Program-made: the position numbers and the translations under genes
Part shown: positions 10,596 to 54,300 of the stretch, piece after piece
How positions within the stretch are numbered: the stretch's first letter is position 1
How the letters are laid out: every line of letters begins with the position of its first letter
DNA from: an uncultured Gammaproteobacteria bacterium
GTDB taxonomy: Bacteria; Pseudomonadota; Gammaproteobacteria; Magnimaribacterales; TMED112
Reading direction: 5' to 3'
Length of the DNA: 64,000 nt
Assembly: GCA_913020145.1 (NCBI GenBank)
Contig: CAJWAI010000002.1
Coordinates: 11,667-75,666 of the forward strand
Notes under the pieces: generated by a model
The model's database searches: none
What the model saw: the letters and a program-made list of their open reading frames with translations, nothing else
What the model was told of the DNA's origin: nothing

Positions 10596-10669
10596 TTAAT
10601 TATTCTATATTAGATAAGTTTTTTTACATTATTTACTTGCATAATTTTACTTAATTCATATAATTCTTG

Positions 10670-10688
10670 AATGAGAATGATTCTCATT
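10670..10688. promoter_or_regulatory. Fur box-like 9-1-9 palindrome (AATGAGAAT-G-ATTCTCATT), followed by a second partial site GATTATCATTT at 10691-10701
   Basis: Same architecture as the GATAATGAT-A-ATCATTATC consensus. Lies 36 nt upstream of the ATG of a TonB-dependent receptor, within the 128-bp divergent region shared with the IDO gene. Confidence 0.6.
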
Positions 10689-10723
10689 TAGATTATCATT
10701 TAGATTTTAAGAAAAAGGTTGAT

Positions 10724-16784: not shown

Positions 16785-16829
16785 TATATCTATTTGTTTA
16801 TAATAGGAACCCGAGTACGTCAGGGCATT

Positions 16830-30278: not shown

Positions 30279-30355
30279 TAATGATAAATTGTAACACTTA
30301 CATTGAATTAACTTAGACAAGAAAACTAAAAGATTGTATATTATTTAGCTCGTTT

Positions 30356-38116: not shown

Positions 38117-39114
38117 AAAAAACCTTTCTTTTTCATAGTCTTTTGAGTCCAGTCTTTTTCTAATAGTTCCTCAAATCTATATGCATTGTTAGGATTTGCT
38201 ATCCTTTTATTCTTTATATCAATACCACTAAAATCTCTGTAATCATTTAAATTTCTTTCAGAACCAAGACCGTAGGATCCTTTAAGTTTCCCCTTAATAA
38301 TTTCTTCAATACGTATTTTACTTTTTCGTTGTAGCTCTAGCCATTTAATAGTTCTATTTTTATCTTCTTCTTCGTTCCAATGCATAGGCCTAGTAAATTG
38401 ATCTGAGTCATTAACATAACAATGAAATATCGGAATTTTAGGAATATGGAAGATATCAAATCCTCTAGTAAATAATCGGATAGCTAAACTCGTTTCTTCT
38501 CCTTCAAAATATAAATGTGGATCATAGGGAACATTTTCTACAAACTCTTTAGTTGAAAATAAGAAACCTGCGGATAATAAAAATCCTTTGTATATTTGTT
38601 TTGATTCAGTTGGCATGCCTTTCTGCATAGAAAAATACCCATCTTTAAAAACTTTATCTTCATCAAGCACCATGACATGTGTAGAGGAGTCATTCTCTTG
38701 ATTTTTTTTAAAGACTTTTTTGTCAAAATCAATGACTTCAAAACCTCTAGGATAGGCAGAAATTACAGGTTTATCGTGATTTTTTTTTATAGTATTAATG
38801 TAATTTAGTAAATATTCATCCCAGTCTTTTTCAAATAATGTATGTGAATCAATCTGCAAAAAATAATCTTCATCTTTCATTAATGTCTGAGCCAGAGATC
38901 TAGCCCAACACGGACCTCGAGCTGCTTCAGGATCAAGGTGAGTATAAGTAATTTGTTTTGACAATTTAGATTTAGAAAAGTCTAATTTAAAGTCACACTG
39001 ATCAACTATTCCAAATGTAAGATTATCTTTATATTTAGCTGCAGAGTAGGCACTATGAATTGTCACAGGTAACAACTTGTCTTGATACGATGCAATTGAT
39101 ATAAAAATTTTCAT
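38110..39114 (-). CDS. Glycosyltransferase, GlcNAc-transferase-like family
   Basis: The N-terminus KIFISIASYQD...GIVDQ resembles the Glycosyltransferase (GlcNAc) family as recalled. QIDSH segment. 7-nt overlap with ggt. Confidence 0.55.
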   Translation of the reverse strand: MKIFISIASYQDKLLPVTIHSAYSAAKYKDNLTFGIVDQCDFKLDFSKSKLSKQITYTHLDPEAARGPCWARSLAQTLMKDEDYFLQIDSHTLFEKDWDEYLLNYINTIKKNHDKPVISAYPRGFEVIDFDKKVFKKNQENDSSTHVMVLDEDKVFKDGYFSMQKGMPTESKQIYKGFLLSAGFLFSTKEFVENVPYDPHLYFEGEETSLAIRLFTRGFDIFHIPKIPIFHCYVNDSDQFTRPMHWNEEEDKNRTIKWLELQRKSKIRIEEIIKGKLKGSYGLGSERNLNDYRDFSGIDIKNKRIANPNNAYRFEELLEKDWTQKTMKKKGFLW

Positions 39115-39671
39115 TAGTGTTTAGTTATAATTTCGCTGTTTTGAATTTTATCAATATCATAGCCAACTTGACCTGATATCTCTTTTATTAGGTCTTTAGG
39201 ATCTCTTTCAAATACAACTAGAGGATCTATATCTAATATTAACCAACTATTTTTTGATACTTCATAATCTAGTTGACCTGCATCCCAACCACAGTAACCC
39301 AAGGCTAATCTATATTGATCATTAAATTTACCCTGGCCGATAGACTTTAGTACATCGATACTTGAAGTTAGATTTAAGCCTTTTTCAACACAAAGGGATT
39401 CTTTTTCGTCCGCCTGATTATGGATTACAAATAATTTATTAATATCAACAGGACCACCATTTAAAATATGTTTCTGGTCTTTGGAGGTTTTTATATCTAA
39501 TGATTTAAATATTTTTTCTTCGCTTATTGGAATAATTTTATTCATAACCACGCCTAATGCTCCATTCTTATTATGTTCAAATATATATACCAAACCGTTA
39601 TAGAAATAATCATTTTGATTTTTCTCTTGGAAAAAGAGGAATTTGTTCACAAAGAAATTTTCTTCTGACAT
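39114..39671 (-). CDS. YqgE/AlgH family protein (UPF0301)
   Basis: NGALGVVMNK, GGPV and LGYCGWDAGQLDYEV..NSW motifs. Confidence 0.8.
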   Translation of the reverse strand: MSEENFFVNKFLFFQEKNQNDYFYNGLVYIFEHNKNGALGVVMNKIIPISEEKIFKSLDIKTSKDQKHILNGGPVDINKLFVIHNQADEKESLCVEKGLNLTSSIDVLKSIGQGKFNDQYRLALGYCGWDAGQLDYEVSKNSWLILDIDPLVVFERDPKDLIKEISGQVGYDIDKIQNSEIITKH

Positions 39672-39705
39672 AATCTTAGTTTAAGGTTTTCCATAAATTT
39701 TTAAT

Positions 39706-41379
39706 ATGCCCGAGACAAAGATAACAACAGAAACGAATCTAAAGGCCGCTTTTGCTGAACTAAGAAAAACAAACCCATTATTCGAACTAGAAAATCGTAA
39801 ATTAGTTAATGGCATTGAATACAATGTTTTTAAAAGTGCTCCCAAAACGCTTAGAGATCTTTTTGATGTAATACATCTTTTACATGGAGATTTTCCAGTC
39901 CTTCTTGATGAAGGTAAACAGCTTAGTTATCTGGAAACAATGGCTAAGGCTAAAAATCTTGCTAATTACCTTACAGATAGAGGCATTAAACCTGGTGATA
40001 GAGTTGGTATATGCATGCAAAATTGTGCTGAGTGGATTATTGCTCATTTAGCTATTTCTGGTCATGGAGCTACTTCCGTTCCCTTGAATTCATGGTGGCG
40101 AGAAGAAGAACTTAAATATGGAGTGGAACATAGTGAGGTAAAAATTATCTTCCTTGATACAAAAAGATATGAATTCATTAAAGACTTACCTGTTGAAAAA
40201 ATTATTATTGGTGATGATCAAATAGATGGATGCACGAATTTCTCATCTACAGTTGAGGGAAGCTGTGATTCATGGCCAGAGCTTAATGCTAATGATGAAG
40301 ATGTAAATGTAATACTTTACACATCTGGAAGCACAGGCATGCCTAAAGGAGTAATGCTTTCTCATTTATCTGTTATTAATGCACTTTTTGGATTTTATAC
40401 CTTTGGGGAACTAAGAGGATTGATCCATCAGGAAGAGCTATTAGACGTTGAGAATGCATCAATTCTCTTAAATGTTCCTTTGTTTCATGTAACTGGTTTG
40501 ATTACTCAGTTTTTATTATCAATGTTGGCAAAAAGAAACATAATACTTATGCGTAAGTGGGATGCAACTGAAGCTCTCGAGTTAATTACAAAACATAAAG
40601 TAACTAATTTAAGTGGTGTCCCAGCTCAATCCTGGGACTTGCTAAACCATCCAGAAGTGGATAATTATGATTTAAGTTCTTTAACTGATATTGCAGCTGG
40701 AGGTGCTGCAAGACCAGAAGAACAGGTTATAAATCTAGATAAGAAATTTAGCATTCCTCAGAGTTTTGCATGGGGTATGACTGAAACAACGGCAATAGGA
40801 ACTCTATTAAGAGGTAATGATTACTTAGAGAGACCAAACAGTGCTGGTTTATGTGTGCCTGATTTAACAGAGATAGGAATAATTGATGAAAAGTGGAATT
40901 TTTTAGATGCAGGTCAAATCGGAGAGATGGTATTTAAATCTCCAACAAATACTATTGGGTATTTAAAAAACCCTGAAGAAACTAATAATACAATTAAAGA
41001 TGGCTGGCTTAGGACAGGTGATCTTGGATACCTCGATACTGATGGTTATATCTTCATAGTAGATAGAAAAAAAGCATTAATTATTAGAGGCGGAGAAAAT
41101 ATTTCATGCCTTGAAGTTGAAAATGCACTGGACAAATATAATGGAATTATTGAATCCTGTGTGTGTGGGATATATGATGAAAAATTCGGAGAAGTAGTGG
41201 GCTCATATATATATGCTGAAGAAGAACTTGATATAGAATTAATAAAAGAATTCCTCTCGAAATATTTAGCCAATTATAAAGTCCCTGAGATATTTATATT
41301 TACAGATAAACCTTTACCAAGAATCGCTTCAGAAAAACTTGATAGGGTTGGAATTAAGGAATTACTTGCTAAGAAATAA
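39706..41379 (+). CDS. Acyl-CoA synthetase / AMP-dependent ligase (long-chain fatty acid-CoA ligase-like)
   Basis: ILYTSGSTGMPKGV AMP-binding motif, GWGMTE, WLRTGDLGYLDTDGYIFIVDRKK. Confidence 0.85.
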   Translation: MPETKITTETNLKAAFAELRKTNPLFELENRKLVNGIEYNVFKSAPKTLRDLFDVIHLLHGDFPVLLDEGKQLSYLETMAKAKNLANYLTDRGIKPGDRVGICMQNCAEWIIAHLAISGHGATSVPLNSWWREEELKYGVEHSEVKIIFLDTKRYEFIKDLPVEKIIIGDDQIDGCTNFSSTVEGSCDSWPELNANDEDVNVILYTSGSTGMPKGVMLSHLSVINALFGFYTFGELRGLIHQEELLDVENASILLNVPLFHVTGLITQFLLSMLAKRNIILMRKWDATEALELITKHKVTNLSGVPAQSWDLLNHPEVDNYDLSSLTDIAAGGAARPEEQVINLDKKFSIPQSFAWGMTETTAIGTLLRGNDYLERPNSAGLCVPDLTEIGIIDEKWNFLDAGQIGEMVFKSPTNTIGYLKNPEETNNTIKDGWLRTGDLGYLDTDGYIFIVDRKKALIIRGGENISCLEVENALDKYNGIIESCVCGIYDEKFGEVVGSYIYAEEELDIELIKEFLSKYLANYKVPEIFIFTDKPLPRIASEKLDRVGIKELLAKK

Positions 41380-41380
41380 T

Positions 41381-42079
41381 ATGACTAATAGCGTAAAAAA
41401 ATCTATCTATATTGTTGAAGATGAACCAGATATAAGAGAAACACTTTCATACAATCTAATCCAAGAAGGTTTCATAGTTTCTGAATTTCCTGACGCAGAA
41501 TCATGCCTTAATAAATTAAATCACACAAAACCTGATTTAGTTATTCTTGACCTTATGTTGCCAGGTATGTCAGGCCTTGATTTATGCAAAATAATTAAGA
41601 GTGATAAAGGGCTAAAACATTTGGCTATCATTATGCTCACAGCTAAAGGAGAAGAAGTCGATAGAATTTTAGGGTTCGAGCTTGGTGCAGATGATTACGT
41701 TACAAAACCCTTTAGTGTTAGAGAACTAATATTAAGAGTTAAAGTAATATTAAAAAAACATGGCGAACCAATTGAAGAAAACGAATTAATAGAGTTTGGA
41801 TCAATTAAATTAAATCTCGACGCTCATGAGGTTTTAATTAATGATGATGAGGTTATTCTTACCGCATTAGAATTCAAACTTCTCAAACATCTAATTCAAA
41901 GAAGGGGTAGAGTTCAAACTAGGGACCAGCTTCTTGGTGATGTATGGGGTTATAGCTCAGAAGTTACTACAAGGACTGTTGATACCCATATAAAGCGACT
42001 CAGAGAGAAACTTGGCCAAGTTGGTAACTATATTCAAACTATAAGAGGTGTTGGGTATAGGCTAAATAACCAAAGTTAA
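41381..42079 (+). CDS. phoB: OmpR-family response regulator, PhoB-like
   Basis: Receiver domain (VEDEPDI, DLVILDLMLPG, MLTAKGEEVDRILGFELGADDYVTKPFSVREL) and a winged-helix C-terminus (TVDTHIKRLREKL, IQTIRGVGYRL). ATG lies 1 nt after the upstream stop. The ORF-track start at 41339 would overlap the ligase gene. Confidence 0.75.
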   Translation: MTNSVKKSIYIVEDEPDIRETLSYNLIQEGFIVSEFPDAESCLNKLNHTKPDLVILDLMLPGMSGLDLCKIIKSDKGLKHLAIIMLTAKGEEVDRILGFELGADDYVTKPFSVRELILRVKVILKKHGEPIEENELIEFGSIKLNLDAHEVLINDDEVILTALEFKLLKHLIQRRGRVQTRDQLLGDVWGYSSEVTTRTVDTHIKRLREKLGQVGNYIQTIRGVGYRLNNQS

Positions 42080-43857
42080 TGCGTTCATTTATTTCCCGAA
42101 TAAGAGTTTCTAGAATTTTTTTATTGTCAGTAACATTTCTGACATTTGTTATCTTCTTCATATCAACAATCTTTTCAACTTTTATTTATAACAATACAAA
42201 ACAACAATTAATTGAGTCGTTATATATTCAAGCTAAGGCAATAGATAAATTAATCCCTGCATTAGATGATCTACCGCTGAATAATTTTGACTCTATTGCT
42301 AATAAACTAGATATTGAAGGGACTAATCAAGAAAAACTGCGGGTTACAATTATTGATGAAAATTGGGTTGTAATAGGTGACTCATTTCTTTCCAGTGAAG
42401 ATCTAAGTGATATTGAAATTCACTCGCCAGATACACGTTTAGAGATTAAAAATGCTTTACTCGATAAATATGGTACAACAACACGAATAAGTGAAACTAC
42501 AGGTGATGAACTTATCTATGTCGCAATCTTAAGAGATCCAAACGATAGATCAAAAGGGTTAATTAGAGTAGCCTTACCTTTTAATTATTACACCTCAATT
42601 TTTAATTTTTTTATCTACCCCTTCGTTATTCTATTAATTCTAGTGATAGCATCTTCAAGCTTCCTATCATTTAACGTCCAGAATGATCTAAGAAAAAATC
42701 TGGATTCTTTATTGAGAAACACTCAAAAGGCTCTTAAAGGAAAAAGAATCAAAGAAAGTCTGGGAAAAAAAGATACGCAAATTGGTTCAATAGAAGATGC
42801 TGTAAACGATATTTCAATAAGATTAAACAATGAGATCCAACAGACCGTCGAACAGCGAAAAGAATTTGGTAATGTTTTAGATAATGTCAATCAGGGTGTA
42901 ATTATCTTTAATAAAAACTTTAAAGTACGCTTTTCTAACGATATCGCTTTAGAAATGTTTGGAAAACATGAATTCTTTTTAAATGAAAAAATAAAATCAA
43001 AAAAACTACTAAAAATTAACAAATTACTAAAATCAACCAAAGATAATTTGTCTGCTGAGAGCGAATTATCAATAAAGCTGTCTGGTGAAGATAGAAATTT
43101 TCTTCTCTCAGCTACTAAAATGGAAACAACCAACGAATACATATTAGTAATAAATGACATTTCATCTCTTAGAAAATTAGAAGAGCTCCGAAAACAATTT
43201 GTTACAGATATATCTCATGAGATAAAAACACCTATTTCTGTAATTAGAGCCAATTCTGAGACTTTATCTAGTACTGGAGCAATAAAAGATCCTAAATTAG
43301 CAGAAAAGTTTTTAAATTCTATCCTTAATAATTCAGAGCGCTTGAGTGAAATGTTGGACGACTTATTAGAATTAGAAAAAATTGAATTTGGAGGACTGGT
43401 ATTAAATAGAAAAAAATTTAATGTTAGTGATCAGATAGACCTAATTTTAGAATCACAGCAAGCTTTAGCAGACGAGAATGAAATTACTATCACAAATTAC
43501 ATCGATAAAAATATCTCACTAAAAGTAGATAAAGATTCTTTTACTACAATTTTTTCAAATTTAATTAATAACTCTATTAAATATTCACGAGCAAAAGGAA
43601 ATATTGATCTAAAAGCAATAGAAAATAAAAGTGCATTAATAATATCAATTGCAGATGAAGGCTTAGGCATAGAAAAACAGTATCTAAACAAGGTATTTAA
43701 TCGGTTCTATCGAACACCAAAAGCACGCGCTAATACTAAGGGTACGGGGCTAGGGCTATCACTTGTAAAACAACTAGCTTCAAGAATGAACGCTGAAGCT
43801 GAAATTGAGTCAAAGATAGGGAAAGGTACAACAGTTTTTGTCACCTTTCCTACTTAA
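42079..43857 (+). CDS. Sensor histidine kinase, PhoR-like, with a large extracytoplasmic domain
   Basis: TM1 (aa ~12-36), ~135-aa loop, TM2 (aa ~172-197), linker/PAS-like region, H-box DISHEIKTPISVI, N/G boxes (NLINNSIKYS, DEGLGI, GTGLGLSLV). TAATG junction with phoB. Confidence 0.7.
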   Translation: MRSFISRIRVSRIFLLSVTFLTFVIFFISTIFSTFIYNNTKQQLIESLYIQAKAIDKLIPALDDLPLNNFDSIANKLDIEGTNQEKLRVTIIDENWVVIGDSFLSSEDLSDIEIHSPDTRLEIKNALLDKYGTTTRISETTGDELIYVAILRDPNDRSKGLIRVALPFNYYTSIFNFFIYPFVILLILVIASSSFLSFNVQNDLRKNLDSLLRNTQKALKGKRIKESLGKKDTQIGSIEDAVNDISIRLNNEIQQTVEQRKEFGNVLDNVNQGVIIFNKNFKVRFSNDIALEMFGKHEFFLNEKIKSKKLLKINKLLKSTKDNLSAESELSIKLSGEDRNFLLSATKMETTNEYILVINDISSLRKLEELRKQFVTDISHEIKTPISVIRANSETLSSTGAIKDPKLAEKFLNSILNNSERLSEMLDDLLELEKIEFGGLVLNRKKFNVSDQIDLILESQQALADENEITITNYIDKNISLKVDKDSFTTIFSNLINNSIKYSRAKGNIDLKAIENKSALIISIADEGLGIEKQYLNKVFNRFYRTPKARANTKGTGLGLSLVKQLASRMNAEAEIESKIGKGTTVFVTFPT

Positions 43858-43872
43858 TAGTAAAATTAATAC

Positions 43873-44304
43873 ATGAATAGAAGCGACATTATTAGATTAA
43901 CAATATTTTCATTTTTTCTTATTTTGATTCTATTTTTTTATTACAACATTGGTTTTCTAACATTTAGTAATGCAAATATTGATGAGGAGCTGCCAACTCC
44001 TGTTAAAGAAGAAAAAATTACTACATCCCAGAACATCGGTTCAATTGATAGTGCAACTCAATTAACCTTAGGGTTTGAAATAGTAGGAATCAGAGGTAAC
44101 AACCCAGATAGTACAATCATAATCTTAGATAAGGATCAATATAGGTTAATAGAGCAGGGGTCAAATGTAACTCAACAAATTACCTTTTCCCATACAGACG
44201 GATCTAGAGCATATTTTTTTGATGGCAATAACTATACTTTTCTTGATATCATAGGTTCAGAGAAATCTTTTGATCAAAATAGAATAGATCTAATACAGGA
44301 ATAA
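43873..44304 (+). CDS. Candidate minimal GspC (T2SS inner-membrane/secretin-coupling protein), no PDZ domain
   Basis: Position immediately 5' of gspD. N-terminal TM (LTIFSFFLILILFFYY) plus a ~110-aa periplasmic domain. Assigned by position and topology only. Confidence 0.4.
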   Translation: MNRSDIIRLTIFSFFLILILFFYYNIGFLTFSNANIDEELPTPVKEEKITTSQNIGSIDSATQLTLGFEIVGIRGNNPDSTIIILDKDQYRLIEQGSNVTQQITFSHTDGSRAYFFDGNNYTFLDIIGSEKSFDQNRIDLIQE

Positions 44305-44305
44305 T

Positions 44306-46132
44306 ATGTTTTTAAAGAGATTAATAATTGCGGTATCTTTGTCTCTAACGCTAACAGCGCAAGACCAGAATATTTTTTATAAAGATGCCGATATTAAAAC
44401 TTTTGCTCAAGATATAGCATTGTTAACAGATAAAACTATTATTCTTGATCCTAGAGTAAAAGGTTTAATAACAATTTATTCAGATGCCCCCTTAAATTCA
44501 GATTCTATTTGGGAGGTCTTCCTTTCCACAATGGAAGTTCAAGGTTATAACGTTTTAAAAGATGGAGACATCTATAGAGTTATACCATCACAAGAAGGTG
44601 TGAAGAACTTCTCTGAAGATGGTGATTTTCAAGGCTCAATTGGATCAGAAGTAATCAAATTAAGATTTTCTAGTGCAAAAGATATAGTAAATGCTGTTAA
44701 ACCAATAGTTGGCGTTAGATCTTATATTGTAGCTTTAAACAATGATAGAGAAGTACTTATCTCCGATGATGCAGACAATATAAAACGAATTAAAGACATA
44801 ATAAGAAATTTAGACTCTGAGCTTGATACAAGTATTTCTGAATTTAAATTAAAAAATTTATCAGCAATTGAAGCACTAAGACTTATTAATTCATTGAAGA
44901 CAGACCCTAATACACGATTTGATAAATTAGCTGTAGCAACTTTTCAAGGCTCAAATAAATTAATATTTAGCGGTCCATTAGAAATAGTAATCCGAGCCAA
45001 AAGAGTTTTATCACAGTTAGATCTAGATAATAATTTAAATGAAAATACAAAAGTAATTTATCTTAACTATTCTAAAGCAGAAGATATATTACAAATTCTT
45101 ACAGATGTTTCTGCCTCTTTTAATCAAGAAGAGAACGTTGATTATAAGACTGTTATTACATCTCATGAGGAAACAAATTCAATAATCATTAGATCAAATC
45201 CTCAGTCCATTAAAACTCTAACTTCAATAGTCGAGCAATTAGATATAAGAAGACCTCAAGTTTATGTTGAAGCAATTATAGTTGAGATTTCTGATGAATC
45301 TGCTAGAGCCTTAGGTGTAGATACAATATATTCCGGAGATTCTACAGGAAATACACCAATTGCATTAACAAGATTTCCTACAACAACAAATCCAGATTTA
45401 TTGTCGATTGTAGGATCTGCTGATGATAATACTGATATTGGCTCTTCAACTGGTGCTGCTTCATCTATTCTTAGCACAAGAGGTTTTGTTGCGGGGTTAG
45501 GAAACTTTACCGATGGAGAGGATAATTTTGCTGTACTGCTGTCTCTGCTAAGAGAAGATCAAAACTCCAATATTCTTTCTACACCATCAGCAGTAGTAAT
45601 GGATAATGAGGAGGCATCATTACTTGTCGGCCAAGAAATTCCTATTACTACTGGAGAATCTTTGGGTGCTAATAATATTACACCGTTCAGAACTACAGCT
45701 AGAGAAGAAATAGGAGTGAAATTAGAGATAAAGCCGCAAATCAATGATTCTGGGTCTGTAGCATTATTTATAAGGCAAGAAGTTTCAAGCATTGCTGGTG
45801 CTCAGCTGCCAAACTCAAATGACTTAATTACAAATAAAAGAGAAATAGAAACAACAGTTTTAGCTGACAATGGACAAATATTAGTTCTTGGCGGATTGAT
45901 AAGTGAGGATGTTCAAGAATCAGTCAATAAAGTTCCTCTTTTAGGAGATATTCCTCTTCTAGGTAGACTTTTTAGATCATCTGCTAAGTCAATTCAAAGA
46001 AGAAATTTAATGATCTTTCTCAAACCAACTATTCTTAGAGATTCATTAACTACAAAAGATCTATCAGAAGAAAAATATAATTTAATCAAAGCACAGCAAA
46101 TTTTAAAAGAAGAAGATCAAGATACTGAATAA
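44306..46132 (+). CDS. gspD: Type II secretion system secretin
   Basis: Signal peptide, N-domain repeats, and secretin core with VLVLGGLISE...VPLLGDIPLLGRLFRS. Confidence 0.9.
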   Translation: MFLKRLIIAVSLSLTLTAQDQNIFYKDADIKTFAQDIALLTDKTIILDPRVKGLITIYSDAPLNSDSIWEVFLSTMEVQGYNVLKDGDIYRVIPSQEGVKNFSEDGDFQGSIGSEVIKLRFSSAKDIVNAVKPIVGVRSYIVALNNDREVLISDDADNIKRIKDIIRNLDSELDTSISEFKLKNLSAIEALRLINSLKTDPNTRFDKLAVATFQGSNKLIFSGPLEIVIRAKRVLSQLDLDNNLNENTKVIYLNYSKAEDILQILTDVSASFNQEENVDYKTVITSHEETNSIIIRSNPQSIKTLTSIVEQLDIRRPQVYVEAIIVEISDESARALGVDTIYSGDSTGNTPIALTRFPTTTNPDLLSIVGSADDNTDIGSSTGAASSILSTRGFVAGLGNFTDGEDNFAVLLSLLREDQNSNILSTPSAVVMDNEEASLLVGQEIPITTGESLGANNITPFRTTAREEIGVKLEIKPQINDSGSVALFIRQEVSSIAGAQLPNSNDLITNKREIETTVLADNGQILVLGGLISEDVQESVNKVPLLGDIPLLGRLFRSSAKSIQRRNLMIFLKPTILRDSLTTKDLSEEKYNLIKAQQILKEEDQDTE

Positions 46133-46134
46133 AA

Positions 46135-47583
46135 ATGAATCTTCCTCTGCCTTATAGTTATTGCAAGTTAAATAAAGTAACAATCACTAATGAAAATAAT
46201 CATTCAACTTTACATGTCTGTGGTGAATTAAAGCCAATCATTTTATCTTCAATTCAGAATTTATTTGCCGATAGTGTTGAGAAGAAGACTTATTCTGATG
46301 ATGATTTTCAAAGTCTATTAACAGAGCTCTACACAGACAAAACTGAAGATTTAGATTTTTCGGAACTAGATAACCTAGATTTAGCAGATATTGCTAATTC
46401 TATTTCTCCATCTGACGATCTTCTAGATGATAAAAATAAAGGACCAATTATTAAATTAATTAATGCAACAATTACTAAAGCTATAAAAGCTAGATCATCT
46501 GATATCCATTTAGAGCCATTTGAAAATAAATTAAGCATACGATTTAGGGTCGATGGAGTATTAAGAGAAGTATTACAGTATCAAAAAAATATAACTCAGA
46601 TGATTATTTCAAGAATAAAAATTATGTCTAAATTAGATATATCTGAAAGAAGGTTACCTCAAGATGGACGAATTTCGATATCAATAGGTAAAAGAGAGGT
46701 TGATTTACGTGTGTCCACGTTGCCGTCATCATTCGGGGAACGTGTTGTTCTTAGAATACTTGAAAAAGATAAAACCCATATAAATTTAAATGATCTCGGC
46801 TTTTCTAGTGAAACTCTGGATAGCTTTAAAAAAGGTCTTTCTAAAACAGAGGGCATTATTCTCGTTACTGGTCCAACCGGCTCAGGAAAAACAACATCCT
46901 TATATGCAGGATTAAAAGAAATCTCAGATAGATCTCAAAATATACTTACTATTGAAGATCCAGTTGAATATGCTCTTGATGGAATAGGGCAGACTCAGGT
47001 AAATAATAAAACGGGCTTAACATTTGCAAAAGGCCTAAGAGCTATTCTTAGACAAGATCCTGATATTGTAATGGTCGGTGAAATAAGAGATAAAGAGACA
47101 GCTGAAATTGCTATACAAGCCAGCTTAACTGGACATTTAGTTCTATCAACTGTTCACACAAATAGTGCTGTTAATGCAATTACTAGATTAAGAGATATGG
47201 GCATTGAACCATATCTACTATCATCAAGTTTAGTCTATGTCTTATCACAAAGATTAGTAAGAAAACTTTGTGATAAATGTAAGGTTGTAGACGAAGATCA
47301 TAAGAGTTTAAGCATTCTGCAAAAATATAATATTAGTGAAGTTATTTATAAAAGTTGTGGTTGTGATGAATGTGAACATACAGGATTTAAGGGACGTCTA
47401 AGTGTAGGTGAACATATTTTAATGGATGAGACAATAAGTGACTTGATCCATAAATCTGCATCTGAAAATGAAATAGCTGATTACGCTTATTCAAATAATA
47501 AAAAACTTTTTGAGAATGCATTATTAACATTGAAAGATGGTAAAACTTCATTATCCGAGTTACTTAGAATTACAGAAGACTAA
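46135..47583 (+). CDS. gspE: Type II secretion ATPase
   Basis: Walker A GPTGSGKTT, Asp box, Walker B IVMVGEIRD, His box, tetracysteine CDKC...CGCDEC. Confidence 0.9.
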   Translation: MNLPLPYSYCKLNKVTITNENNHSTLHVCGELKPIILSSIQNLFADSVEKKTYSDDDFQSLLTELYTDKTEDLDFSELDNLDLADIANSISPSDDLLDDKNKGPIIKLINATITKAIKARSSDIHLEPFENKLSIRFRVDGVLREVLQYQKNITQMIISRIKIMSKLDISERRLPQDGRISISIGKREVDLRVSTLPSSFGERVVLRILEKDKTHINLNDLGFSSETLDSFKKGLSKTEGIILVTGPTGSGKTTSLYAGLKEISDRSQNILTIEDPVEYALDGIGQTQVNNKTGLTFAKGLRAILRQDPDIVMVGEIRDKETAEIAIQASLTGHLVLSTVHTNSAVNAITRLRDMGIEPYLLSSSLVYVLSQRLVRKLCDKCKVVDEDHKSLSILQKYNISEVIYKSCGCDECEHTGFKGRLSVGEHILMDETISDLIHKSASENEIADYAYSNNKKLFENALLTLKDGKTSLSELLRITED

Positions 47584-48779
47584 TGGCAACCTTTAAATAT
47601 TTAGCCTTTAATGGCCAAGAAAAAAAAATTAGAGGCTATATTAATGCCACTGATCAAGTAGAGGCTATTTCAATGTTGCAAAGTAAGGGTTTAAATCCTT
47701 TATCAGTTACTCAGAGTGAACAAAAAAAATCAAAAATTAAAATCTCGACAAGAGATCTTTCTATTTTTACTAAACAAATGTCAGCATTACTTTCAGCTGG
47801 AACACCATTAGAAAAATCACTTGAATTACTAAGTCTACAAACTAACAATAATAAATTTTCACAGGTTTTACTTAATATTATGGAAGATGTTACTGAAGGT
47901 AATAGCTTAAGTTCTTCTTTAAAAAAATTTCCTAGAATATTTGATGAAATATACACTTCAACTATTTACGCTGGTGAAACATCAGCTGCACTTGCTGAGG
48001 TCTTTTCTGACCTATCTGAATATTTAGATAAGGAAACACAGATTAAATCTCAAGTTACTGGTGCACTTGTATACCCAAGTATCTTATTTTTTGTTTCATT
48101 AGCAGTAATATACGCTCTATTAACCTTTGTTTTGCCACAAGTAGTCGAACAATTTGTTTCTTCTAATGTTTCATTGCCTCTGTTAACACAAATACTACTA
48201 AACTTCTCAGCTGTTTTTCCTTATATAGTTTTTTCCTTCTTAGGAATATTTGCAAGTTGTTATTTCTTACTGCAATCAAATTTTCTCTCAACTGAATTTA
48301 AATTAAGTGTCTCAAAACTTTTTCTTAAGACTCCACTATTTGGACAGATCATACTATTTGATCAAACTGCTAGATTCTGCTCATCAATGAGATTAATGAC
48401 AAAAGCAGGTTTAAATACAATTGATAGTCTTCATATTGCGAAAGATACTTTTAAAAATAAGTATTTAAAGAATGAAGTAAGTATAGTCGTTAGCAAAGTT
48501 AATGCTGGGACATCAATCAGCCAAGCCTTTGCACTATCTAAAATTTTTCCTACTGTATTTCATCAACTTCTTAGTTCTGGTGATATGGGAAGTCAAATAA
48601 GTGAAATGTTTGAAAAGATTAAAAATTTTCTTGATCAGGAGGTAGAAACAAGAAGAAATGTATTACTTACACTCTTGCAGCCAATTGTAATATTAACAAT
48701 GGGCGTATTTGTAATGCTTATTGTTTTGGCAATAATGTTGCCTTTATTACAAATGAATAATTTAATATTCAATATATGA
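47583..48779 (+). CDS. gspF: Type II secretion inner-membrane platform protein
   Basis: 398 aa with two GspF-type repeats and 3 TMs. Shares a TAATG junction with gspE. Confidence 0.85.
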   Translation: MATFKYLAFNGQEKKIRGYINATDQVEAISMLQSKGLNPLSVTQSEQKKSKIKISTRDLSIFTKQMSALLSAGTPLEKSLELLSLQTNNNKFSQVLLNIMEDVTEGNSLSSSLKKFPRIFDEIYTSTIYAGETSAALAEVFSDLSEYLDKETQIKSQVTGALVYPSILFFVSLAVIYALLTFVLPQVVEQFVSSNVSLPLLTQILLNFSAVFPYIVFSFLGIFASCYFLLQSNFLSTEFKLSVSKLFLKTPLFGQIILFDQTARFCSSMRLMTKAGLNTIDSLHIAKDTFKNKYLKNEVSIVVSKVNAGTSISQAFALSKIFPTVFHQLLSSGDMGSQISEMFEKIKNFLDQEVETRRNVLLTLLQPIVILTMGVFVMLIVLAIMLPLLQMNNLIFNI

Positions 48780-49204
48780 AAAAATTACTTAAAAAAGGTT
48801 TTACTTTATTAGAGTTGCTTATAGTCATCGTCATTATGGGATTATTAGTTTCTCTTGTATCTCTTAACTTATTTCCAACATTGAATAATGCTTATGTAGA
48901 AGTTGCAAAGACTGATATTAAAAAAATAGAGCAAGCAGTGCTCATGTTTAAACTTAGTGAAGGATCCTACCCTACACAGCAGCAAGGCATAAAAAGTTTA
49001 AAGGAAAATCCAGGTAATCTTAAAAGACCTGGTAAATATCCTTCTGGTGGCTTCATAAACAAACTTCCTAAAGATCCTTGGGGTAATGATTATGTGTATA
49101 TCTACCCAGGACAATATGGTGAATTTGACATTATCTCTTACGGCGCAGATGGACAACCTGGTGGAGAAGGGGAAAATGCAGATATCAACAGCTCAACTCA
49201 ATAA
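48776..49204 (+). CDS. gspG: Type II secretion major pseudopilin
   Basis: Prepilin leader MKKLLKKG/FTLLELLIV (Glu+5). DPWGNDYVY and GADGQPGGEGENADI Ca-site region. Confidence 0.9.
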   Translation: MKKLLKKGFTLLELLIVIVIMGLLVSLVSLNLFPTLNNAYVEVAKTDIKKIEQAVLMFKLSEGSYPTQQQGIKSLKENPGNLKRPGKYPSGGFINKLPKDPWGNDYVYIYPGQYGEFDIISYGADGQPGGEGENADINSSTQ

Positions 49205-49574
49205 AGGCTTTACTTTACTTGAAATAATTATTGTTCTGACAATAATCTCCCTTGCATCAACATCTTTTTATCTACTGTTGCGACAACCAGTCCCTGAAGA
49301 AAGTCTCACGGACAAGATTACGCACCTCCAAGAAAATAGTCTTTATACAGGCTTAACTTTTTCTTTTACAAAAGACTCAATCAAAATATACAAAAAGGGT
49401 GAATGGGTTAAATTTGAAGATTTTGATACATCGTATGTACAAAGCTATGAAGATAGTAATGGTCAAAATAGACAAATTAAAGAGGATGAAATGTACTTAA
49501 TAATAGCCCCTGGAAATCAAACTTCTGTACAAAAAATTACACTAAATAACAATGAGTCAATTGAAATTAATTAA
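49176..49574 (+). CDS. gspH: Type II secretion minor pseudopilin GspH
   Basis: MQISTAQLNKG/FTLLEIIIV prepilin signal. ATG 49176 chosen; the ORF-track start at 49086 adds 30 non-pilin residues inside gspG. Confidence 0.7.
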   Translation: MQISTAQLNKGFTLLEIIIVLTIISLASTSFYLLLRQPVPEESLTDKITHLQENSLYTGLTFSFTKDSIKIYKKGEWVKFEDFDTSYVQSYEDSNGQNRQIKEDEMYLIIAPGNQTSVQKITLNNNESIEIN

Positions 49575-49896
49575 TTACAGAGGCGGATTTAGCCTACTAG
49601 AGGTTGTAATATCTTTGTTGATTATATCGGTTACCTTTCTAGCTTATGGTCAATTGATTGAACAAAATTTAAGAGCACAGGATCTCAAACAGAATTTTAT
49701 TGATGATCACCAACTAAAAACAAATGTTCTAACAATATATGTTGCTAACCCTAGGATTGATAATGGCCAGATTAGAGAACTTCTAGACCTAGATTCAATT
49801 TCTCATAGGCAACTAAGCAGATACAATGCTCTTGTCGAAATTGAGATCAAATTCGAAAAAGATTCTGATAAATTCTCATTCAAAGTTATTCAATGA
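49552..49896 (+). CDS. gspI: Type II secretion minor pseudopilin GspI
   Basis: Prepilin signal ...YRGG/FSLLEVVISL. Size and position fit. Confidence 0.7.
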   Translation: MSQLKLINYRGGFSLLEVVISLLIISVTFLAYGQLIEQNLRAQDLKQNFIDDHQLKTNVLTIYVANPRIDNGQIRELLDLDSISHRQLSRYNALVEIEIKFEKDSDKFSFKVIQ

Positions 49897-50477
49897 AATT
49901 AACTAAAGGATTTACTTTAATTGAAATTCTTGTTGCCTTATTGGCAGCATCAATCATTTCAATTATGTCCTTTGAATTTCTTTCCAATAGTGTATTTCTT
50001 AAAGAAAGAGTCGATGTAAACATTAAAAGAGATTCTGAACACATTAATACCATTAACACTATTCGTTTAGATCTAATGCAGGCAGTGCCATTTGATATGA
50101 AAGATCAGAATGGCCGTAACCTTGATCTTTCTTTTATAGGAAATTCTTCAAATCGCCTTATGACATTTGTTTCCTTAAGCACAAGTGATCATCTACGATC
50201 AGTTTCTAAGCTACGAAGAATCATTTATTTATATGAAGATAATCAACTGATTAGAATTACAACTCTATCTAATAAAGAGCAGGTCGAAACATCACGTAAG
50301 ATTTTAATAAAAAACATAAATAATTTAGAAGTTCGTTTTGGTGAAGAATTGGATGATGCAGAAATTGACTGGCCAAATTTGCAATATAGTTCAATTATAG
50401 ATTTTCCAAGATATATCTATTTCTCTTATGAAATTGATAATTCTCAATATCAGCAAGTATTTAGTACATTCAAATGA
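49893..50477 (+). CDS. gspJ: Type II secretion minor pseudopilin GspJ
   Basis: MKLTKG/FTLIEILVAL prepilin signal. 194 aa. Position fits. Confidence 0.7.
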   Translation: MKLTKGFTLIEILVALLAASIISIMSFEFLSNSVFLKERVDVNIKRDSEHINTINTIRLDLMQAVPFDMKDQNGRNLDLSFIGNSSNRLMTFVSLSTSDHLRSVSKLRRIIYLYEDNQLIRITTLSNKEQVETSRKILIKNINNLEVRFGEELDDAEIDWPNLQYSSIIDFPRYIYFSYEIDNSQYQQVFSTFK

Positions 50478-51409
50478 AAAAAGGTTTTGTTTTAATATCA
50501 ACATTAGCTCTAATACTTATTCTTAGTTTTTTAGTCTTAGTGCTTAGCAGAACTATCTATACAGACACTTTAAAGACAAATATCTATTCAACATCAATAG
50601 AGAAGCGTATTGAATTAATTAATACAGAAAAAATTCTTATTGATACTTTTATCAGTAATTCAGATAGATTAAGAAATGTAGAATTTGCAGAAGGTGAGCT
50701 CAATTTTATAATAAACACTAAGATCCCTGATTTATTAATTGAGCTGAATGATTTATCCACATGTTTTAACTTAAATTCTTTAGTTAAGCCATTTAGAAAT
50801 ATCTATGTAAAAAATGAATTAGTTGGCGAACGTTTTAAGAATTTCTTAAAAATTAATGAAATTGATAGAAATAAACATAGAGAATTTTTAGATCGCTTAT
50901 ATGATTCACTTGATACAGATAGTCTGCCTGAGCCATTTGGTGCAGAGGATTTGTTTTATATTGCTAATGAAAACTTATCATTAAGTCCTGATCAGCCTTA
51001 TTTGCATAAAAGTCAAATAAAAAATTTATCGTTGCTTACTGATAACGAAATATTTCAAATTTATCCAAATATTTGTGCGCTTCCACATAATGAATTGCAA
51101 TTCAATATAAATGGCCTAAACGAACAAAATTATTTAGTTCTATTAGCAATGTCTCCTAACTTATCTTTTAATGACATAGAGAAACTGATAATTAATAGGC
51201 CTCCACAAGGCTATATAAGCTTTGCAAATGTTATCAACCTCTCTGGTATCAGTGAAGATCGAATTGATAGTTCTCTATTGATATATAAACCAGAATACCT
51301 GCAAATTAACTATACTTTTGATTTAGAAGGACAATTTTTTCATTTTTACAGTGTAATAAGTTTAAAAACAAGAAATAATAACCTTATCCATAGAAGTACA
51401 TCATTATGA
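50474..51409 (+). CDS. gspK: Type II secretion minor pseudopilin GspK
   Basis: MKKG/FVLISTLAL leader lacking Glu+5, as is typical for GspK. 311 aa. Position fits. Confidence 0.65.
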   Translation: MKKGFVLISTLALILILSFLVLVLSRTIYTDTLKTNIYSTSIEKRIELINTEKILIDTFISNSDRLRNVEFAEGELNFIINTKIPDLLIELNDLSTCFNLNSLVKPFRNIYVKNELVGERFKNFLKINEIDRNKHREFLDRLYDSLDTDSLPEPFGAEDLFYIANENLSLSPDQPYLHKSQIKNLSLLTDNEIFQIYPNICALPHNELQFNINGLNEQNYLVLLAMSPNLSFNDIEKLIINRPPQGYISFANVINLSGISEDRIDSSLLIYKPEYLQINYTFDLEGQFFHFYSVISLKTRNNNLIHRSTSL

Positions 51410-52434
51410 AGATTTTTTTATTTATTGATCAATCCTTAGAATCAGGACATTTAATTAGCGACGACAAAAATAAGAAAGTTAAGTTAGATGAGTTGAAAGA
51501 TTTTAATGATATTTTATTTGTTTTACCTAATGAGACCTTAACTTTCGTTAAACATGATGGAAATCTTAAGAATACAAAGAATTTGCATGCTTCTATTATC
51601 AATTCAGTAAATGTCATTGATTTTGATGAAAGGTCTGAATTACAAGTACTTGGCTCATCAAATTCGCAAAACTTTTTTACGATTAAAAAAGATTACTTAA
51701 ATTTATTAAAGGAAAGGTTTAAGCGTGCAGAAACTAAAATTAAGCTGACTTCTGATTTGCTTTTTTTTAAAGAAATATTTAATACCGATATTAGTTTTAA
51801 TAAATCAATTTTTTATAAAGAGGGTGGAGATGTTATTAAGTTAACTGAACAGGCATTTTCTTTGCTTGAACAAACAAATTTAGAAATAGCCCCTAAATTT
51901 CTTGATGATTTAAAAGTAGATGATGATGCAAAAATTACTTTTCATGAGTTCGATTTATTTAATTTTCAAAATACCTTTGGTTTTAGTGCAATTAAGAAAT
52001 GGATTTATGCAGCAATATCTTTAATTGTTTTACTTAATGTAATTGGTTTAGTTAACATCATGTCTAATTGGAACCAAATAAAAAAAATGGATAGCATGTT
52101 GGCGGAAATGTATTTATCAATTTATCCAGATGATGATGTTATCTCACTCGATGAACAAATTGCAGCAAAGTTTAATACTCCTCCTGAGAATACAACTTCT
52201 ACCACTTCAAAGGTCTCACAATTAATTTTAGATATTGCTAGTACAGCACAAATTATTGAGCTCAGTTTTACTGATGAACAAGACCAATATTTATTTATAA
52301 AATGTATATTTAAAAAGTTATCTGAAGAACAAATATTCATAGAAAATCAACAGAATAATAATCTAACTGTATCTGTCGTTGATAGGGTAGATAGTAAAGA
52401 TATAGTAATTACACAATTTAAATATGAATTATAA
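51406..52434 (+). CDS. gspL: Type II secretion protein GspL (bitopic, cytoplasmic actin-like domain)
   Basis: 342 aa with a single central TM (WIYAAISLIVLLNVIGLV). Lies after gspK. Assigned by order and topology. Confidence 0.55.
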   Translation: MKIFLFIDQSLESGHLISDDKNKKVKLDELKDFNDILFVLPNETLTFVKHDGNLKNTKNLHASIINSVNVIDFDERSELQVLGSSNSQNFFTIKKDYLNLLKERFKRAETKIKLTSDLLFFKEIFNTDISFNKSIFYKEGGDVIKLTEQAFSLLEQTNLEIAPKFLDDLKVDDDAKITFHEFDLFNFQNTFGFSAIKKWIYAAISLIVLLNVIGLVNIMSNWNQIKKMDSMLAEMYLSIYPDDDVISLDEQIAAKFNTPPENTTSTTSKVSQLILDIASTAQIIELSFTDEQDQYLFIKCIFKKLSEEQIFIENQQNNNLTVSVVDRVDSKDIVITQFKYEL

Positions 52435-52837
52435 GTTTTCAAATAGAGAAAAAATATTGATAAAAATTCTTGGTGTTTTATCTGTAATATTTTTAGTCTA
52501 TTTTGTTGAAATAAAAATACTTTCTGGTCTTGCGGATTCTAGAGACGCACTTCGCAACAAAGTACAAAACTTTAATACTACAAAACAACAATTAGCACAA
52601 CTTAAAGCATATCGAGATGAAGTTATTAATCCAAATTCAACTACAAAATTTTCTACTCACTTAGAATTAAATAAATACTTAAATCAAGGTAGTGGGGATA
52701 TATTCAAAGTAAGTATGCTCACAACTAATGATCTATTAGAGTTGTTAAGATTTATGCATGGTCTAAACTTAAATACTATTGATATAAAATTAGTTGACGA
52801 AAATAACTATATATTGAATGTAAGCTTTAATGATTAG
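52424..52837 (+). CDS. gspM: Type II secretion protein GspM
   Basis: 137 aa with an N-terminal TM (ILGVLSVIFLVYFV). Assigned by position and topology. Confidence 0.5.
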   Translation: MNYKFSNREKILIKILGVLSVIFLVYFVEIKILSGLADSRDALRNKVQNFNTTKQQLAQLKAYRDEVINPNSTTKFSTHLELNKYLNQGSGDIFKVSMLTTNDLLELLRFMHGLNLNTIDIKLVDENNYILNVSFND

Positions 52838-53489
52838 ATTTTTAATTGCCTTTATTGTTATTGTCCTTTTATTGGGCCTTTCTTTATTTTTTGTACCAAT
52901 AGATACATTACTTAAAAGATTTAATACCTCATCTGCAGTAAGTTATTCCCTTGCCGAGGGAAATCTTTTTAATGGAAGAATAAATGATGTTTCCTATAAG
53001 ACGTCTGAAGATGCAGTGCCACTAGATCTTGGTGACTATTTTTATGATGGCAACATCCAGTTTACCGGTATTAAAGTAACATTTAATAATGAGGATAGCA
53101 GTACCTTAGGAGTTGTAAAAACAAACTTTTTTAATGGCAATCTATATCTAGAAGATTTTTCTACCAAAACCGAATACAAGACCAATGGACTAGGTATGTT
53201 AGGACTAAAAGTTGAGATTGATAAATTAACAATGAATGATGGATTATGTAGCTCTATAACAGGCACAATGTCGTTATCAAATGATTCATTTAACGAAGTT
53301 GTAAAGGGCGACATAAAATGCCTAGAGAATAATATATATGAAGCTGATCTATTTAATTCTAATAATGTTGAAATGGGAACAATAATCTACAGGCCGGGTT
53401 TTATAGATTTAGAAATTGAAACGGCTATTTTAAAAGCAGATGTATCAGTCTTTTTAGGAAAAAGAATGGGCTTTACAATTCCCCTTTAA
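52830..53489 (+). CDS. Type II secretion protein GspN-like
   Basis: 219 aa with an N-terminal TM. Last gene of the cluster. Assigned by position and topology. Confidence 0.45.
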   Translation: MIRFLIAFIVIVLLLGLSLFFVPIDTLLKRFNTSSAVSYSLAEGNLFNGRINDVSYKTSEDAVPLDLGDYFYDGNIQFTGIKVTFNNEDSSTLGVVKTNFFNGNLYLEDFSTKTEYKTNGLGMLGLKVEIDKLTMNDGLCSSITGTMSLSNDSFNEVVKGDIKCLENNIYEADLFNSNNVEMGTIIYRPGFIDLEIETAILKADVSVFLGKRMGFTIPL

Positions 53490-54300
53490 TAACTTTCTTA
53501 ATTAATCCATCTGATATGCTCCAAAAACTGTTTTCAATAGTCTGAGCACCAATACTAGTTAAAAATAATAAGTAAATTTCCGCAGCTATAGGAACTATAT
53601 CTATTCTATCCTCTGGGATTTCATAAGTATCAAGAAGTACTTTTTCTTCTATTTGATTATAGGTTTTGACTAAATTTTTAAGCTTAGCTACTTCAATTAC
53701 ACCTGTATGGTTATTTGCTTGCATTATTGCCCTTAAATTTCCTCCTAAACCGAAAGTTGTAGATACTGGCTTGAATTTTTCGAGCCAACTACTAAATTCT
53801 CTCATTGCTTCATTTCTAGCGTTTTGATCTAGATTGAGAAGTCTAACCGCACCCAGTTGGAAGGACTCATAATGGATTTTACCTGTCTTATTTATGCATA
53901 CTTCAACGCTACCACCGCCAATATCAATAACTGCAGAATCCTGAATATTTTTATTAAAATCTATTAGTAACGATGCCTCTTGCTTACCTGTAAGAATTTT
54001 TAAGTTAATATCTAATTCCTTTAATTTTTCAGTCAAATAATGAGAATTACTGGAATCTCTTACAGCAGATGTGGCTATAAAATATGACTGTTCTACATTT
54101 CTTTCAATAAAAATCTTTGAGTAACTTTCGAGTAAATCAATCAGCGCATTAATTGTTATTTCTGATAACTTATTGTTATTAAATACATCTCTTCCTAGTC
54201 TCAATGGTTCTCTATAATATTCAAGTAACTCAAAATTTTCTGAATTGAAAATCTTATATTTAACAGCATTAGATCCAATATCAACAATAGAAATTTTCAT
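53473..54300 (-). CDS. Ppx/GppA family phosphatase, short two-domain form
   Basis: ASKHA-fold motifs IVDIGSNAVK and VIDIGGGSVE. 275 aa, so it lacks the C-terminal HD-like domains of long exopolyphosphatases. Confidence 0.75.
   Translation of the reverse strand: MKISIVDIGSNAVKYKIFNSENFELLEYYREPLRLGRDVFNNNKLSEITINALIDLLESYSKIFIERNVEQSYFIATSAVRDSSNSHYLTEKLKELDINLKILTGKQEASLLIDFNKNIQDSAVIDIGGGSVEVCINKTGKIHYESFQLGAVRLLNLDQNARNEAMREFSSWLEKFKPVSTTFGLGGNLRAIMQANNHTGVIEVAKLKNLVKTYNQIEEKVLLDTYEIPEDRIDIVPIAAEIYLLFLTSIGAQTIENSFWSISDGLIKKVIKGEL

Follow-up and report, generated by a model that had tools for sequence, protein, structure and literature searches.

A PhoB/PhoR-like pair and a type II secretion gene set share a conserved SAR86 phosphorus neighbourhood, with a predicted promoter at their junction

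SAR86 bacteria are uncultured and globally abundant in the surface ocean, so their nutrient strategy must be read from genomes. One stretch of such a genome, 64,000 nucleotides long and referred to here as the window (positions 11,667 to 75,666 of the forward strand of contig CAJWAI010000002.1, assembly GCA_913020145.1, GTDB lineage TMED112), holds at 39706-53489 a string of 15 co-directional open reading frames (ORFs). These encode an acyl-CoA ligase, an OmpR-family response regulator (RR), a sensor histidine kinase (HK) and the proteins GspC-like to GspN-like of a type II secretion system (T2SS). The string had been noticed in a preliminary description of the DNA, where it was presented as phoB-phoR and a ligase fused to a complete T2SS. 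In the list below, TM stands for a transmembrane segment.

39706-41379, plus strand: acyl-CoA ligase, FadD-like (Pfam AMP-binding, 1.3e-72)
41381-42079, plus strand: OmpR-family response regulator, PhoB-like (Pfam; TIGR02154 PhoB is the best match)
42079-43857, plus strand: sensor histidine kinase (TM, periplasmic sCache-like domain of ~130 aa, TM, PAS, HisKA, HATPase)
43873-44304, plus strand: GspC-like protein in the gspC position (143 aa, N-terminal TM helix and beta-rich C-terminal part)
44306-46132, plus strand: GspD secretin (Pfam N0, Secretin_N, Secretin)
46135-47583, plus strand: GspE ATPase (Pfam T2SSE, 2.9e-147, 490 bits; GSPE_N1E, 30.5 bits)
47583-48779, plus strand: GspF platform protein (Pfam T2SSF in two stretches, 190 bits)
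48776-49204, plus strand: GspG major pseudopilin (Pfam T2SSG, 1.9e-36; N_methyl)
49176-49574, plus strand: GspH-like minor pseudopilin (N_methyl; weak match to the GspH N-terminus, TIGR01708)
49552-49896, plus strand: GspI-like minor pseudopilin (N_methyl; position)
49893-50477, plus strand: GspJ (Pfam T2SSJ, 1e-10)
50474-51409, plus strand: GspK (Pfam T2SSK_1st, 6.9e-11)
51406-52434, plus strand: GspL, strongly diverged (342 aa; predicted fold)
52424-52837, plus strand: GspM (Pfam T2SSM, 27.0 bits against a gathering score of 27.8, E = 6e-6; three orthologs match)
52830-53489, plus strand: probable GspN-like protein (T2SSN in two orthologs, E = 0.0047; N-terminal TM; position)

Families were called from Pfam gathering scores and NCBIfam cutoffs, and the diverged genes were also followed through their orthologs, AlphaFold models and Foldseek searches. 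The string contains a secretin, GspE together with GspF, the pseudopilins G, J and K, and the platform proteins L and M, and thus a real T2SS gene set does stand directly behind a two-component system, as first described. In particular, the GspD domains PF21305, PF03958 and PF00263 all exceed their gathering scores. The H- and I-like genes have the prepilin N-methylation motif as their only robust family signal, and the GspH-like ORF opens at 49086, with the ATG at 49176 as its probable start. For the ligase, a match to the long-chain-fatty-acid-CoA ligase subfamily of NCBIfam falls under the cutoff, and the gene is named long-chain acyl-CoA synthetase in IMG.

The most diverged members required other evidence. 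The 342-aa ORF between gspK and gspM is without any sequence match, and all of its 90 homologs are confined to the clade. The top Foldseek matches of its AlphaFold (AF2) model, which has a pLDDT of 77, are T2SS L proteins, with EpsL/GspL (1yf5, 4pht) matching the cytoplasmic part and PulL/XcpY/EpsL (5hl8, 5n7l, 2w7v) the periplasmic part. As these matches take in both L domains, the ORF is, by its predicted fold, GspL. The GspC-like protein has a single TM (residues 3-33) and no match in Pfam, NCBIfam or PDB sequences, and its 322 homologs all fall within the SAR86 clade. Its model (pLDDT 48) is of too low a quality to be used in a fold search, so that the protein is assigned to GspC by position, with a fitting topology and no match to an HR domain. 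Some of its database homologs (P0383-P0400) are called at 157-163 aa instead of 143-145, presumably from upstream alternative starts. Profiles built from ortholog alignments of C, L and N gave no significant match to PDB sequences, and hhalign comparisons with GspC, GspL and GspM of E. coli K-12 gave nothing significant, the sole hint being a match of GspL across the TM region (E = 0.075). No prepilin peptidase gene (gspO/pilD) occurs in the string or in the rest of the window, though one may be encoded elsewhere. The word complete, as first applied to this gene set, is therefore slightly overstated.

The genes of the string follow one another almost without spacing. The ligase stop (41379) is separated by 1 nt from the RR start codon (41381), the RR stop and HK start codons overlap in TAATG at 42079, and a spacer of 15 nt, TAGTAAAATTAATAC, lies between the HK stop (43857) and the gspC-like ATG (43873). 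At the gsp junctions after gspC, the gaps are +1, +2, -1, -4, -5, -23, -4, -4, -4, -11 and -8 nt. On its 5' side the ligase has a divergent gap of 34 nt. All coordinates and junctions given in the preliminary description check out, down to these 34 nt, and its reading of the spacer as free of a hairpin is borne out as well, since no terminator-like hairpin was found in the 15 nt; the later junctions range from +2 to -23 nt. The gspC gene shares the HK reading frame, and the gap between them (43857-43873) holds stop codons only.

What such packing means depends on the rest of the genome. At 15 genes the string is the longest run in the window, the other runs having 4-5 genes. The window is ~94% coding with a GC content of ~32%, and co-directional gaps outside the string have a median of 5 nt, 21 of 34 being 20 nt or less. 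Four to five of the eight convergent pairs overlap, by 4-17 nt (2899/2902, 4690/4693, 9411/9414, 13457/13465 and 53473/53489), and the gap within six of eight divergent pairs is just 30-50 nt. Tight spacing is thus the norm, for convergent and divergent genes too, so that small gaps are no sign of obligate co-transcription, and coding sequence in this clade must regularly house promoters and terminators. Similarly, tiny or negative gaps that lack a hairpin are the rule even between convergent genes, which makes the missing hairpin at the HK/gspC junction uninformative. The overlapping convergent pairs offer no space for intrinsic terminators and point to Rho-dependent or other unusual termination, or to tolerated antisense read-through.

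Three promoter-like features are placed where transcription units would be expected to begin.

43838-43866, plus strand: predicted sigma-70-like promoter, TTGTCA-17-TAAAAT, spanning the HK 3' end, its stop codon and the spacer (10/12 consensus)
39646-39674, plus strand: promoter-like TTCACA-17-CATAAT with TG, upstream of the ligase (10/12), overlapping the algH start on the opposite strand
39694-39699, plus strand: -10-like TAAATT ending 6 nt ahead of the ligase ATG, a leaderless-type geometry

In a consensus scan, the ligase-upstream and HK/gspC sites were two of the best plus-strand matches, at the expected unit starts. At the HK/gspC junction, TTGTCA begins at 43838 and TAAAAT occupies 43861-43866, so that the -10 element ends 6 nt ahead of the gspC ATG. 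This spacing recurs across the window. Of 35 unit-first genes, meaning those whose upstream gap measures 5 nt or more, 10 have a TAnnnT hexamer that ends exactly 6 nt ahead of the start codon, whereas none of the 29 tightly coupled genes does (binomial p = 2e-8 against a background of 0.027 per position). The ten are gspC, which has the best -35 (5/6), the ligase (TAAATT), algH (TAAACT) and seven other genes, and perfect TATAAT, TACAAT and TAGAAT hexamers are among them; the starts concerned include 22896(+), 34053(+), 4690-5505(-), 9411-10595(-), 39114-39671(-), 39706(+) and 43873(+). Seven aligned SAR86 lineages keep the arrangement TTGTnA, 17 nt, TAnnnT, 6-7 nt, ATG at the HK/gspC junction, with variation in the hexamer itself (TAAAAT vs TAGTAT) and shifts in the position of the stop codon. 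The ligase TAAATT is kept in the L007, L011 and L013 lineages and not in the L001 tier. The sequence at 39646-39674 is also conserved across lineages, but this conservation is confounded because the segment codes for algH.

In Actinobacteria and Deinococcus, leaderless transcription units are marked by a TANNNT -10 element whose end lies some 6 nt ahead of the start codon. The ten genes of the window, gspC, the ligase and algH included, show this geometry, although the SAR86 case is a prediction, and no report of leaderless transcription in SAR86 was found in the searchable literature. It suggests that leaderless transcripts may be widespread in SAR86; among gammaproteobacteria this would be an uncommon trait.

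These observations bear directly on whether the string is one operon. An obligate 15-gene operon would leave the T2SS wholly dependent on the promoter or promoters of the ligase/phoBR genes and would hard-wire secretion to phosphate starvation, which is how the preliminary description read the layout, arguing that there was no room for a promoter or terminator ahead of gspC. Junctions of 15 nt or less, the lack of a terminator-like hairpin between the units, a layout conserved clade-wide and phosphorus genes on the downstream side all fit such an operon. However, the first two of these are what the genome shows nearly everywhere, even between convergent and divergent genes. The HK/gspC site, with its unit-first geometry and its retention in seven lineages, lies exactly where that reading allows no promoter, and a single operon devoid of internal promoters is thus at odds with the string as predicted in silico. 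In addition, the ligase/RR junction is variable, measuring 1-8 nt in most lineages and 24-27 nt in two, and in these two a TAAATT hexamer lies 6 nt upstream of the RR start. An obligate operon is therefore considered unlikely, and the physical hard-wiring of secretion to the regulator gives way to a predicted promoter of the gsp genes' own within packing that is the genome norm.

The identity of the two-component pair as PhoB/PhoR is partly supported. For the RR, TIGR02154 PhoB is the top family (244.6 bits), followed by Bacteroidota PhoB (217.6) and CreB (216.3). The protein is 42% identical to E. coli PhoB, its best solved relative is RegX3 (PDB 2oqr), a mycobacterial phosphate regulator, and its best receiver-only chain is the E. 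coli PhoB receiver; members of its cluster are annotated PhoB in IMG. The ten nearest relatives outside SAR86 (50-54% identity) score 245-269 bits against TIGR02154, all sub-threshold, so that the RR belongs to a subfamily that is PhoB-like but distinct from the canonical orthologs. The contigs of these relatives are short or uninformative; on one the regulator adjoins a PAS-HisKA kinase, and pst genes are absent from the vicinity.

The HK departs further from the E. coli model. Classical proteobacterial PhoR, as is the rule in gammaproteobacteria, has no periplasmic sensor domain and signals via PstSCAB-PhoU. The SAR86 kinase carries a periplasmic domain at residues ~39-170, for which weak sCache_like matches were obtained in 7/7 orthologs, and its 28% identity to E. 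coli PhoR is limited to the generic DHp-CA core. Its best NCBIfam matches are PnpS and, over the full length, WalK and Bacteroidota PhoR, all under their cutoffs. The TM-Cache-TM-PAS-DHp-CA architecture matches that of SenX3-RegX3, PnpRS, Bacillus PhoPR and Bacteroidota PhoBR (NF053854/NF053855); these Pho systems are non-proteobacterial, whereas the host here is a gammaproteobacterium, and the SAR86 pair scores under all the family cutoffs. The HMM check proposed along with the preliminary description thus confirmed most of the T2SS families and left the pair below the PhoB and PhoR equivalog cutoffs. The label phoB-phoR is upheld by the best family of the RR and by the phosphorus-gene context, and not by the equivalog scores, the architecture of the kinase or the search for Pho boxes.

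The window contains no pstSCAB, no phoU and no second two-component system. In SAR86, ABC importers with a binding protein were described only for oligopeptide and Fe(III), phosphate being taken up via secondary transporters, and no Pst-type ABC phosphate importer was reported (Dupont et al., 2012; PMC3358033). In a mesocosm metatranscriptome, phoBRU and pit transcripts induced by phosphorus depletion were attributed to SAR86 (PMC12981677). The pair is probably the phosphate-responsive system of the clade, of a non-canonical and possibly Pst-independent kind. The sCache-like domain, together with the reported absence of Pst, hints at Pst-independent sensing of phosphate or organophosphate.

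The genes that follow the string, and a more distant phosphatase gene, give the locus its phosphorus character.

53473-54300, minus strand: Ppx/GppA-family phosphatase, convergent with gspN and overlapping it by 17 nt; a neighbour in all lineages
54306-55139, minus strand: polyphosphate kinase 2 (ppk2), conserved across lineages
55190-56452, plus strand: PHO4/Pit-type phosphate transporter, conserved across lineages
56548-59082, plus strand: TonB-dependent receptor (TBDR), found in L049 and absent in L048
59033-60127, plus strand: beta-propeller phytase with a Sec-type signal peptide, a candidate T2SS cargo; conserved
29322-30320, minus strand: PhoD-like phosphatase with a Sec-type (not Tat) signal peptide, a distant candidate cargo

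With Ppx/GppA, PPK2, PHO4/Pit, TBDR and phytase genes right after the T2SS, the phosphorus theme is strongly supported by context. The TBDR and phytase genes overlap (56548-59082 and 59033-60127). Beta-propeller phytase and TonB-dependent receptor are a known gene pair in aquatic Proteobacteria. The SAR86 locus has the same order of TBDR and overlapping phytase, but here the pair lies beside PHO4, ppk2, ppx and the T2SS, and the receptor is dispensable in L048, where it is missing upstream of the phytase, which therefore has no strict need of that receptor as a partner. The proposal that the phytase and the PhoD-like phosphatase are cargo agrees with the export signals, as both carry Sec-type signal peptides. 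Canonical PhoD is a Tat substrate. The signal peptide of the PhoD-like phosphatase, MKLINFLLVFIFSNLVTA/EV, has no twin-arginine motif, and the Pfam match of this protein spans just part of the domain (residues 164-262). A further ORF of 725 aa (16794-18971, plus strand) has a signal-peptide-like N-terminus, MKKVLYIIFISNLFF, and no Pfam match; its product is possibly secreted or located in the outer membrane and is another conceivable T2SS substrate.

Conservation was followed by mapping 24 window genes onto eleven related loci (L001 and L004-L013), together with L041 and with two loci reached via GspL homologs (L048 and L049). Homologs of the kinase come from marine metagenomes and from metagenome-assembled genomes labelled SAR86. 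The order mscS-ggt-GT-algH, then divergently ligase-RR-HK-gspC to gspN, then convergently ppx, is identical in the eleven loci, across HK identities from 92% to 51%, and L041, from a further abundant lineage, shows the same gene order. In L048 and L049, ppk2, PHO4, phytase (with the TBDR or not) and then VTT and HIT genes are likewise kept; in L048 (13766-13770) the start codons of the divergent ppk2 and PHO4 genes are 3 nt apart. The expectation that phoBR-gsp synteny would extend to related genomes is thereby satisfied in all SAR86 lineages sampled, and gene order at these loci indicates that the arrangement is ancient in SAR86. In L004 (a 561-kb contig, ERZ28548090), gspD, E, F, J, K and L seem fragmented; since the genes are intact in all other lineages, the cause is most likely frameshift error of this long-read 'pilon' assembly and not pseudogenisation. 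A mobile or laterally acquired island was also considered and is ruled out by uniform GC and by the collinear locus in all SAR86 lineages sampled.

Taken together, these findings somewhat favour a reading in which the T2SS genes have their own promoter and also receive read-through from upstream, within a clade-wide SAR86 phosphorus-acquisition island that includes a PhoB/PhoR-like pair; promoter activity, read-through, phosphate response and cargo are the inferred parts of it. The string would comprise two transcription units, ligase-RR-HK and gspC-N. The second would be driven by a sigma-70-type promoter lying within the last HK codons and the 15-nt spacer, and by that geometry the gspC mRNA would be leaderless or near-leaderless. 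As no terminator separates the units, read-through from the ligase-RR-HK unit is probable and would add to gsp expression. The cell would thus hold a basal level of T2SS and make more of it upon induction of the upstream unit, for example by phosphorus limitation if that unit behaves as is usual for Pho systems. The regulator is PhoB-like and is paired with a kinase of the WalK or Bacillus-PhoR type of architecture with a periplasmic Cache-like sensor. The Sec-exported phytase is a plausible cargo of the T2SS, and its products could be taken up by the adjacent receptor and transporter, so that the TBDR, PHO4 transporter, PPK2 and Ppx would complete a route of import and storage.

Several observations count against this two-unit reading. 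Promoter-like hexamers are common in a genome of 32% GC (54 found vs 81 expected in shuffles). The -35 of the HK/gspC site lies in codons of a conserved FFV motif and its -10 partly overlaps in-frame stops (TAA TAG TAA), so part of the conservation has other explanations. Shine-Dalgarno (SD) motifs precede 1 of the 10 putative leaderless genes vs 13 of 55 others, a difference that is not significant where such motifs are scarce overall. The tandem stops and the rarity of SD motifs are also what would be expected if the TAAAAT-type element were a translation signal, AT-rich and S1-dependent, non-SD or serving re-initiation, or simply a by-product of the tandem stops. The tightly coupled genes also need translation initiation, yet none of the 29 has the motif. 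The perfect TATAAT, TACAAT and TAGAAT hexamers at a fixed distance of 6 nt have the geometry of leaderless promoters, and in distant lineages the hexamer changes in sequence while its TAnnnT form stays. A role in translation, or an origin as a by-product, is accordingly judged quite improbable.

Further points against the two-unit reading concern the pair and its setting. The RR lies under the TIGR02154 PhoB equivalog cutoff (244.6 vs 296.2 bits), and the HK misses the cutoffs for PhoR by more (TIGR02966, 222.6 vs 334.2 bits; PRK11006, 144 vs 390 bits). Pho boxes of the E. coli type, which are TGTCA-type direct repeats phased at 11 bp, occur at chance (6 matches vs 5.84 expected) with none in the relevant upstream regions, although the SAR86 motif may differ, and phased direct repeats (10-12 bp) upstream of the phosphorus genes did not exceed chance. 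Collinearity also reaches well past the block, mscS, ggt, algH, VTT and HIT being conserved too; as unrelated flanking genes are equally collinear, the fact that the adjacency is conserved says little about functional coupling. These points are what would be seen if the T2SS were a housekeeping system, constitutively expressed from a promoter of its own and standing by SAR86 collinearity next to a pair that is PhoB-like without being a Pho system or that acts on other targets. The nearest RR relatives are likewise under the equivalog cutoff, CreB outscores PhoB on E. coli-specific models (216 vs 199.5 bits), and the sensor architecture is not that of PhoR. The gsp promoter-like site has a near-consensus -35, which typical PhoB-dependent promoters do not. 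Against such incidental adjacency stand the five phosphorus genes that follow the pair across lineages (the TBDR being absent in L048), the rank of PhoB as the top family with RegX3 as the best solved relative, and transcripts annotated phoBR in SAR86 that respond to phosphorus depletion (PMC12981677). The reported absence of Pst in SAR86 also fits a non-canonical Pho sensor as the only one (PMC3358033). On this evidence, incidental adjacency is an unlikely account.

A bolder form of the two-unit reading can be drawn from the same genes, although as a whole it is rather doubtful. The Cache-kinase and its PhoB-like partner would sense phosphorus without PstSCAB-PhoU, and the locus would drive the clade's only T2SS, through read-through and the embedded leaderless promoter, to export a phytase or other phosphatases. 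A single module of ~20 kb would then sense, secrete, hydrolyse, import and store phosphorus.

Control of type II secretion by phosphate is known from other bacteria. The Hxc/LapA system of Pseudomonas aeruginosa is a second, dedicated T2SS, with Xcp2 and UxpA/B as its counterpart in P. putida. As in SAR86, a T2SS is tied there to phosphate scavenging and phosphatase-type cargo is encoded nearby. The regulator of Hxc, however, is a canonical PhoBR that acts in trans from a distant locus, with Pho boxes, whereas the SAR86 T2SS stands directly behind regulator genes with no Pho box detected, and its induction by phosphate limitation is putative. The SAR86 system may also be the only T2SS of its genome, though other T2SS loci were not searched for.

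A closer parallel is found in Caulobacter crescentus, whose sole T2SS belongs to the PhoB regulon along with TonB receptors and a phytase (PMC11208175). This is also an oligotrophic aquatic bacterium in which T2SS, TBDRs and phytase join in one phosphate-starvation programme. Its genes are dispersed and under canonical PhoR-PhoB/PstSCAB, while those of SAR86 form a cluster that includes a non-canonical kinase. A T2SS under Pho control is therefore already known from Pseudomonas and Caulobacter, and the earlier impression that the layout is undescribed appears true for the physical arrangement. What is new is a Pho-like sensor pair physically clustered with a T2SS and a phosphorus module in every SAR86 lineage sampled, together with the non-canonical sensor kinase. 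The founding SAR86 genome paper reported no pili and did not mention a secretion system (PMC3358033), and no prior description of a T2SS or of such an island in SAR86 was found in the literature searched.

An island with a Pho-like sensor, T2SS, polyphosphate enzymes, Pit-type transporter and phytase suggests a strategy in which SAR86 secretes enzymes to mine organic phosphorus, and it offers concrete targets for metatranscriptomics of phosphorus limitation in the ocean. It also carries a caution of method, namely that obligate co-transcription should not be read from very short intergenic gaps when a genome is streamlined; in the SAR86 window, predicted promoters sit within the upstream genes, and many of the first genes appear to be leaderless.

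Two other features of the window lie outside the island. A full-length IMES-1 RNA motif (RF02034, 119 bits vs a gathering score of 81) occupies 5556-5750 on the minus strand, in a 506-nt gap between genes for prephenate dehydratase and an SDR protein, and this match places a marine-metagenome non-coding RNA in a SAR86 genome. An abundant non-coding RNA, which may or may not be IMES-1, was mentioned from metatranscriptomes in SAR86 (Dupont et al., 2012; PMC3358033). At 9411-10595 on the minus strand, a homolog of bacterial indoleamine 2,3-dioxygenase (PF01231, 1.6e-87) adjoins a TonB-dependent receptor gene at 10667-12784.

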